Virus record (IMG/VR): IMGVR_UViG_3300024581_003204
Coordinates: 1-7,081 of that record
Direction: 5' to 3' (one strand)
Length of the DNA: 7,081 nucleotides
Source: a virus
Position 1 is the first letter of the stretch. Each line of letters starts with the position of its first letter. The notes below the pieces were generated by a model. The model made no database searches. It saw nothing but the letters and a program-made list of their open reading frames with translations, and had not been told where the DNA came from. This document shows positions 5,813 to 6,525 of the stretch, piece after piece. The translations under genes and the position numbers were made by a program.

Positions 5813-6481
5813 ATGAACTCAGTAGAGAATGAACTCATGCTAGATCCAAAACAGGTACAACGATTTAAAAGCGCGATCTTAGAAAGAGGCACATATGAAG
5901 AAGTGTCAGAGTTAACCGAAATCAGTGTCAGTACATTAAAAAGAATTTGTGCAGGTAAGACCGACCCTAAGCTGTCAGATGTTATAAAGATTGCAAAGAT
6001 CACGAATGAAAATTTGAATGATCTTGTGTACGGAGACACAAGAGAACAACAGATAGAAGCCGTGAAGTCGTTTGTGAGTGCACTTAATGGTATTGATGAA
6101 GACACTGATGAGGCTTACAGAACAATTATTTGGCAGCTTTCCGGGTTATACAAAGAAGATATCCAAGCGTTAAGCACTCAAGTTCAAGCCCTAAAGAACT
6201 ACAGAGAAAAGCAACGTGCAAGTGAAAGAGCCACACTCAGGAGTGCATACATAAGATGCCTAATTGATGAGCAAACCAGTGCCGCAAGCAACATAAAGCA
6301 AGAGCTAATAGAAAGTTATGGGTTTAGTGAAGAGGAACTCTCAGGGGCAGAAATTGAGTATGAAGTTGTTGCTGAAAAGAAAAAAGCGGAAAGAGACCTA
6401 CGGAAGAGATTAGAAGAAACAGACAAAGCCAACAAAGCATTCGGCTGGGGAAAACACCGAAAAGGGAAAAGTCAGGATTAG
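5813..6481 (+). CDS. XRE/Cro-C1-type HTH transcriptional regulator (putative phage repressor) with a long charged C-terminal region.
   Basis: 222 aa. The N-terminal ~70 aa have the HTH_XRE pattern (TYEEVSELTEISVSTLKRICAGKTDPKLSDVIKIAKITNENLNDLVYG). A GGAGG SD lies 5 nt before the ATG. It is divergent from the replication gene, as rstR is from rstA. The C-terminal ~150 aa are rich in Glu, Lys, Arg and Gln and probably helical or coiled coil. Confidence 0.85.
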   Translation: MNSVENELMLDPKQVQRFKSAILERGTYEEVSELTEISVSTLKRICAGKTDPKLSDVIKIAKITNENLNDLVYGDTREQQIEAVKSFVSALNGIDEDTDEAYRTIIWQLSGLYKEDIQALSTQVQALKNYREKQRASERATLRSAYIRCLIDEQTSAASNIKQELIESYGFSEEELSGAEIEYEVVAEKKKAERDLRKRLEETDKANKAFGWGKHRKGKSQD

Positions 6482-6525
6482 TGCCACATTGGGACTATAA
6501 GCCACTATTAAAGATAGTGGCTTAT
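6470..6525 (-). other. Plus-strand origin of rolling-circle replication: nick-site hairpin plus adjacent putative initiator-binding region.
   Basis: Perfect 12-bp stem (6497..6508 with 6514..6525) and a 5-nt loop. The minus strand reads ATAAGCCACTAT-CTTTA-ATAGTGGCTTAT. This contains CTTTAATAGTGG, identical to the f1 nick-site core (GTTCTTT/AATAGTGGAC) as I recall it from f1-ori vectors. The next ~34 nt (ATAGTGGCTTATAGTCCCAATGTGGCACTAATCC) align at about 22/34 with f1 ATAGTGGACTCTTGTTCCAAACTGGAACAACACTC. Confidence 0.75.

Follow-up and report, generated by a model that had tools for sequence, protein, structure and literature searches.

A probable Ff/IKe-type plus-strand origin beside the repressor gene of a Vibrio-type inovirus

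Gene layout, attachment region and initiator

The window, that is, the whole stretch of 7,081 nt analysed here, carries a 99-nt exact terminal direct repeat (positions 1-99 are the same as 6983-7081) and thus holds 6,982 unique bases, as is typical when a whole circular inovirus genome is recorded with overlapping ends or when a sequence spans the junction between tandem copies. Every morphogenesis and replication gene is found on the minus strand, and the repressor gene alone on the plus strand. The genes relevant to this analysis are the following:

177-1337, minus strand: Zot/pI homologue (ORF listing and Pfam)
1340-1660, minus strand: DUF2523 (pVI-like) gene
minus strand: pIII-like gene, 485 aa
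minus strand: coat protein gene, 78 aa
minus strand: gene in the pV position, 101 aa
4079-5653, minus strand: gene II homologue, coding for a 524-aa rolling-circle initiator, with a TTG start codon
5813-6481, plus strand: HTH_3 repressor gene, 222 aa, convergent with the origin described below (ORF and Pfam)

The minus strand, which also carries all the structural genes, is T-rich (T 32.4%, A 27.4%). The assembly gene is 50% identical to those of V. cyclitrophicus phages and 32% identical to those of fs1 and VEJ, and appears to be of Vibrio type; related sequences also come from Vibrio (e.g., V. jasicida). Additionally, window positions 6790-7002 are 84-92% identical to the attachment region of phages from V. 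parahaemolyticus and V. anguillarum (V5, FR1, VAI1). As judged by such comparisons, the phage is a filamentous, integrative Vibrio inovirus of roughly 7 kb.

Two dif-like sites are present in inverted orientation, at 6825-6862 on the plus strand (TTCGCATTA TACGCTT TTTATGTTAC) and at 7000-6961 on the minus strand (AGTGCGCATTA TATTCGTG TTTATGTTG), and in single-stranded form they fold into a long forked hairpin. The pair, which we take to resemble dif and the attP of CTXphi, looks like a CTXphi-type XerCD attachment site. These sites were also considered as an independent pointer to the packaged strand, a use that was dropped because either strand gives the forked hairpin with the XerC-central-XerD order. 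A strong hairpin is found at 6787-6827 (16-nt arms, 94% complementarity), followed on the plus strand by a T-rich run and terminator-like in the scan; it may be a terminator, a packaging signal or a minus-strand origin. A sigma-70 promoter scan of window positions 5500-7081 found no promoter.

The initiator matches two Pfam families, Phage_CRI (6.6e-70) and G2P_X_C (1.9e-15), and no other; these are the two families of the Ff gene II protein (pII). It is 35% identical to the pII of IKe and about 32% identical to that of Ff. IKe is among its closest named relatives, and only the unannotated Aeromonas phage MBa-2020a is closer (37.6%). A tblastn search with the initiator matched no Vibrio phage in the phage collection, and a literature search found no specific description of a Vibrio inovirus with an Ff-type pII. 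Tyr203 of the initiator aligns with the catalytic Tyr197 of Ff pII in a column that is invariant in six sequences. In Ff, Tyr197 forms the covalent bond with the nicked DNA (PMC5405960), and Tyr203 is predicted to be the catalytic residue here.

Some other characteristics of this protein may be mentioned. The pII proteins of the Vibrio clade have a C-terminal extension of about 110 aa (window 4079-4411, residues ~414-524) with no Pfam match, which is absent from the pII of Ff, IKe and Dulem virus 52. The start codon of gene II is TTG in the window (5651-5653) and in the related locus L004, and GTG in the related locus L005, and the start methionine of protein X in Ff has no conserved counterpart at that place in the alignment.

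The hairpin, the predicted nick and the extent of the origin

On the minus strand, 856 nt upstream of the pII start, lies an element in which the following parts are distinguished (in what follows, a slash within a sequence marks a cut, and signed positions are counted from the predicted nick):

6481..6523, minus strand: probable core of the (+)-strand origin, covering -14 to +29 and corresponding to the larger part of M13 Domain A (from the identity profile)
6497..6525, minus strand: hairpin 1, the nick-site palindrome ATAAGCCACTAT CTTTA ATAGTGGCTTAT (from arms, folding and shuffles)
6509..6510, minus strand: predicted pII nick, CTTT/AATAG, between T6510 and A6509 (from the 13-nt M13 identity and the published M13 cut)
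6481..6506, minus strand: putative pII-binding repeats, beta GTGGCT (in the 3′ arm), gamma GTCCCA (inverted) and delta TGGCAC (from the M13 register)

An earlier note, made from the sequence alone, had described an Ff-like plus-strand origin at this place, beside the stop codon of the regulator gene, and the particulars that it gave for the hairpin and the nick site are borne out by the present analysis. The hairpin is indeed perfect, as its two 12-nt arms (6497-6508 and 6514-6525) are 100% complementary around a 5-nt loop. No other perfect hairpin in the window is as long, and a 12-bp stem was reached in none of 300 first-order Markov shuffles. DNA folding of minus-strand positions 6470-6540 (71 nt, which contain hairpin 1) gives a minimum free energy of -12.7 kcal/mol, with z = -4.3. 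The core shares its last conserved base with the repressor stop codon (TAG, 6479-6481), which lies 15 nt from the base of the hairpin.

The 12-mer CTTTAATAGTGG, which the same note had equated with the nick-site core of f1, occurs once in the window (6513-6502, minus strand). The M13 reference (NC_003287) reads CCACGTTCTTTAATAGTGGACTC or, in another excerpt, GGAGTCCACGTTCTTTAATAGTGGACTCTTGTTCCAAACTGGAAC here, and the exact identity between window and M13 proves to be one base longer than claimed, 13 nt (TCTTTAATAGTGG), with a chance expectation of about 4.5e-4 exact copies in the window. M13 is cut at TTCTTT/AATA, between 5780T and 5781A (PMC4403547, PMC5405960). On account of the 13-nt identity and this published cut, the nick is predicted to fall between window positions 6510 and 6509, within the hairpin loop, which is the position that had been proposed earlier by analogy. 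In Ff and IKe, the nick-site sequence (T)CTTT/AATAGTGG is expected in the loop or the 3′ arm of a palindrome, and in the window it is found in the hairpin loop. The ungapped identity to M13 over +1..+34 is 23/34 (68%), in agreement with the roughly two-thirds over about 34 nt that had been claimed, while the flanks give 26-33%. The repeated GTGGC is also present as described, at 6506-6502 and 6487-6483.

The Logan contigs L061 and L062, which stem from different runs, have exactly the same first base, the C of CTTTA in CTTTAATAGTGG, 4 nt before the predicted nick. A physical DNA end was considered and rejected as an explanation; probably the assembly broke off at the palindrome, or at the place where co-occurring origin variants (with TAT or ATA just upstream) come together.

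A megablast search of phage records with the entire window aligned nothing but short segments (6790-7002 and 28-138) and gave no origin match. As this search was uninformative for the origin, relatives were found through pII. Three loci were selected by their protein, L004 and L005 (pII 93% identical) and L035 from V. jasicida (89%), and in all three the element lies upstream of pII on its coding strand. A pattern scan added seven loci with pII proteins 54-68% identical to that of the window. In a 240-nt profile, the ungapped pairwise identity among 11 relatives is 0.66-1.0 inside about -14 to +29 and falls to about 0.3, the random level, outside; positions -12..+9 served to select the seven loci from the pattern scan, so that for those seven only +10..+29 are independent, while the three protein-selected loci are unbiased for the whole island. 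The result is a conserved island of about 45 nt among relatives with 54-93% pII identity.

The core origin of M13 (Domain A) spans -12..+39, the footprint of its gene II protein spans -7..+33 and the recognition sequence runs from -4 to between +11 and +29 (PMC5405960). The conserved island falls inside this core, takes in most of the footprint and ends about 10 nt short of the 3′ end of Domain A. Inside it, the repeats GTGGCT, GTCCCA and TGGCAC share register and spacing, ungapped, with M13 GTGGAC-TCTT-GTTCCA-AAC-TGGAAC, and we infer by analogy that pII binds them. The gamma and delta repeats form a second palindrome with 5/6 pairs, whose mismatched position varies freely among close relatives. 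In the pII clade of L049, L053 and L057, the sequence at +20..+29 is distinct (GTCCGAATACCGAAC). This difference, which represents a single evolutionary event, is consistent with a role of +20..+29 in setting initiator specificity.

A conserved counterpart of the Ff enhancer (Domain B) was not detected, as the sequence beyond +30 is the 3′ coding region of the repressor, with about 0.3 identity among relatives, and an IHF-consensus search for such an equivalent gave 12 matches where 13 were expected, which is chance level. In f1, this A+T-rich enhancer is dispensable when pII is altered. Against Rfam, the window gave nothing but a miRNA match at chance level (E = 0.56).

In f1, supercoiled DNA is required and the cut is located in the first loop (PMC11765958). 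By analogy, the pII homologue of the window would bind, on the supercoiled, double-stranded replicative form, the three repeats that closely follow the nick on its 3′ side (+5 to +29). It would then distort the DNA and cut the minus strand at T6510/A6509 in the CTTTA loop, with Tyr203 becoming joined to the 5′ phosphate of A6509. A host polymerase would extend the 3′-OH of T6510 while a host helicase displaced the old strand. One round later, the regenerated site would be cut and the displaced strand circularised, the step at which the 5′ half of the palindrome would be required. From such an f1-like mechanism we infer that the packaged strand is the window minus strand, which agrees with the gene orientation and with the T-rich composition of this strand.

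Conservation across the pII family, regulator exchange and rival readings

The long stem with its 5-nt loop is found only in the window, its near-identical contig L060, L035 and IKe, and the three inner pairs are restricted to these. The remaining Vibrio relatives read GCCAC ATA CTTTAATA GTGGC, with an 8-bp stem and an 11-nt loop, like f1. As most relatives have this shorter form, the perfect 12-bp hairpin is a local variant and not the functional essence of the element.

The wider family was compared through an ungapped alignment of 11 origins (the window, three Vibrio relatives, M13, IKe, two metagenomic groups, an Acinetobacter prophage and two saliva inoviruses), in which TTTAAT is invariant. 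When both palindromes were tested on this alignment, 81.8% of the cells were paired, compared with 63% in column shuffles and about 40% when the partners were slid, and double changes were seen in 35 cells where 11.8 were expected. The core 8 bp of hairpin 1 (the GCCAC/GTGGC region) covaries across the pII family, and helix 2 is 83% paired, with three covarying pairs. For instance, GAGTCCAC/GTGGACTC in f1 becomes TAAGCCAC/GTGGCTTA in the window and GAGTGGAC/GTCCACTC in Dulem virus 52.

A covariance model (R1) built from the same alignment gave 31 matches in 38 sources, all 31 on the pII-coding strand; the position was extracted for 19 of them, of which 18 precede the pII start and one overlaps it by 5 nt. 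These matches take in loci whose initiators are only 26-31% identical, and the model detected the origins of distant pII phages that simple hairpin and motif scans had missed. In such distant loci the loop differs (CTTCTAAT, CTCTAAT, CTATAAC, CTCTGGA), while they retain the stem GAGTCCAC/GTGGACTC together with a second palindrome, whose sequence varies. The 13-mer shared exactly with Ff is one among several loop variants.

The conservation of an origin core between phages with moderately similar initiators had been called notable in the earlier note. The conservation is real, but it is general to the pII family, being evident already between Ff and IKe, so that the origin design is a trait of the family. 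This design, a nick palindrome followed by a second, variable palindrome, runs through the whole pII family, integrative phages included.

In some distant loci (L016 554-618, L019 1538-1603 and L010 566-631), the main element is preceded, at a distance of 0.4-2 kb and on the same strand, by another origin-like one with a different loop (e.g., GTCTTCTAATG). This additional element could belong to an adjacent second phage or a satellite, or be a termination copy.

The region between origin and gene II is far more changeable. The contig L060 codes for exactly the pII of the window, and the two sequences agree at 99.4-99.6% except at window 5680-6478, which is replaced in L060 (1407-1926) by a 139-aa HTH gene. 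The breakpoints lie at window 6479 (+31 from the nick) and 26 nt upstream of the pII start. The repressor region is a swappable cassette that ends exactly at the origin core and resembles the heteroimmune rstR/ig-2 regions of CTXphi. Among the window and its relatives, regulators of 222, 231, 139, 129 and 60 aa occupy the same slot and the element stays with pII throughout. In L054, the repressor of the window (93% identical) is paired with a pII that is only 65% identical. By these comparisons, the conserved origin sequence tracks pII and not the regulator.

Between the divergent repressor and pII genes there are two 19-nt palindromes of the form AGTGTC-N7-GACACT (AGTGTCTATAATGACACTA at 5690-5708 and AGTGTCATTTGTGACACTA at 5748-5766), which are likely operators of the repressor.

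Since the window codes for a pII-family initiator with the aligned tyrosine, and the element combines identity to M13 with the IKe format, a bounded conserved island, covariation and linkage to the pII gene and its strand, we consider that window 6523-6481 (minus strand) is, with high probability, the core plus-strand (viral-strand) rolling-circle origin, homologous to Domain A of Ff (f1/M13/fd) and IKe. The main claim of the earlier note, an Ff-like plus-strand origin next to the regulator stop codon, is upheld on the same grounds.

Other functions can be proposed for this hairpin. The same note had suggested that it may act as transcription terminator of the repressor gene, and in a stronger form this reading makes the hairpin mainly or also the intrinsic terminator of that convergent gene. 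In the plus-strand RNA a 13-bp stem would be followed by CACUUAUUUU, the structure stands 15 nt past the repressor stop codon, the RNA fold of 6470-6545 has z = -4.1 and a loose terminator scan lists the hairpin (13 pairs, 4 G-C, tail CACTTATTTT). However, the stem is A+T-rich, the U run begins only 5-6 nt after it, and the scan lists 3 such sites in the window compared with 1.8 expected in shuffles. The U-rich tail, moreover, is found only in the window and L060 and is absent from 10 of 12 related sequences, including L054, which has the same repressor (93%), and the conserved sequence follows pII instead of the regulator. To a secondary role as terminator we give a limited probability.

HTH repressors bind palindromes, and a perfect palindrome adjoining the repressor gene might be read as an operator for autoregulation or for repression of replication, in place of an origin. 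The palindrome is kept, however, in L060, L005 and L035, where the repressor has been swapped for unrelated or shorter regulators; it is homologous to the origins of Ff and IKe, two phages without a repressor; and the likelier operators at 5690-5708 and 5748-5766 do not resemble it. We regard this possibility as extremely improbable. It is also very improbable that the hairpin is some other single-strand signal, namely a minus-strand origin or a packaging signal, and not the plus-strand nick site. Such hairpins do occur in the same intergenic region of filamentous phages, and the single-strand fold of 6470-7010 has z = -5.5 with several strong hairpins, but the conserved part takes in 20 nt of unpaired or asymmetric 3′ sequence and a loop that does not vary and matches the pII cleavage site exactly. 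In Ff and IKe, furthermore, the minus-strand origin and packaging signals are separate hairpins located upstream, and the window offers better candidates for them in its hairpins at 6787-6827 and 6822-7005.

Relation to known phages and exchange of modules

The plus-strand origin proposed here is most readily compared with that of Ff. Both have an identical nick site (TCTTTAATAGTGG) in the loop of a palindrome, putative or known pII-binding repeats that make up a second palindrome at equal ungapped spacing, with 68% identity over +1..+34, an origin upstream of gene II on its coding strand and an initiator of the same Pfam families with the catalytic tyrosine. The conserved span (-14..+29) also falls within M13 Domain A (-12..+39), near the footprint (-7..+33). 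By contrast, the stem reads TAAGCCAC in the window and GAGTCCAC in Ff, with 12 bp and a 5-nt loop as opposed to the 8 bp and 11 nt of f1; the window has no detected conserved A+T-rich enhancer or IHF domain and has a convergent repressor gene between origin and gene II; its pII is only about 32% identical and bears the extra tail of about 110 aa; and its phage has a Vibrio host, dif-like integration sites and no gene IV.

The stem format is that of IKe and I2-2 (Lineavirus), with an 11-12-bp stem, a 5-nt loop and the second palindrome directly after. In fact, the IKe record annotates the homologous GAGTCCACTAT GTTTA ATAGTGGACTC as "viral-strand origin stem loop", and the central part, CCACTAT GTTTA ATAGTGG in IKe and CCACTAT CTTTA ATAGTGG in the window, differs in the first loop base alone (G vs C). 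The second palindrome of IKe, however, is unrelated in sequence (TTGCATTTTGCAA), and IKe is not integrative and has no repressor between origin and gene II.

The arrangement around the origin is that of CTXphi (ori(+) in ig-1, with RstA) and also of VGJphi-type phages: origin, opposite-strand repressor, operators and initiator, in this order, with swappable repressor regions as a heteroimmunity cassette, XerCD/dif-type attachment sites and a host of the same genus. RstA is a Rep_trans-family protein, whereas the initiator of the window matches only the Ff pII families in Pfam and is therefore not of the RstA type. The integrative vibrio phages studied so far have RstA-type initiators, nick a different hairpin and need HU and UvrD (PMC4439123). 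As far as sequence comparison goes, the phage is a mosaic in which a Vibrio-type morphogenesis and integration backbone is combined with an Ff/IKe-type replication module, in CTXphi order.

The origin itself is of the Ff/IKe type, with a known mechanism, and no new kind of mechanism is involved; it is the setting that is mildly interesting. Through the analogy with Ff, a replication start, a packaged strand and a minimal origin of about 45 nt can be assigned to an uncharacterised group of Vibrio inoviruses, which may be useful for phagemids and helper systems in marine vibrios.

Because the cassette breakpoints coincide exactly with the origin core, the shuffling of immunity and replication modules becomes open to test. 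Additionally, L053 has its upstream flank (the intergenic and attachment region) in common with L004 and L005 despite initiators that are only 58% identical, and this combination places a crossover within the core. A tentative and rather speculative proposal, to which we give a limited chance, is that the origin core serves as a fixed joint for module exchange among these Vibrio phages. Hybrid genomes would then be formed when pII started at the origin of one prophage and terminated at that of a co-resident relative. If this were true, an Ff-type replicon would have been grafted onto a CTX-like, XerCD-integrating vibrio phage, and the host factors involved might be of the Rep/IHF type rather than the UvrD/HU of the vibrio phages studied.

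Two further observations concern the arrangement of these elements in other loci. The contig L054 holds two copies of pII (306-1868 and 8129-9691), 7,823 nt apart, which indicates a tandem prophage or a concatemer; in CTXphi, a tandem arrangement lets rolling-circle synthesis go from one origin to the next (PMC4439123). In the Pseudomonas phages 42-1 and NEU2023 (L045 1101-1165 and L047 6694-6758), an origin-like hairpin pair is directly followed by an antisense repressor or small gene and then by pII. As this layout matches that of the window, the order of origin, regulator and initiator recurs in temperate phages of the pII family.
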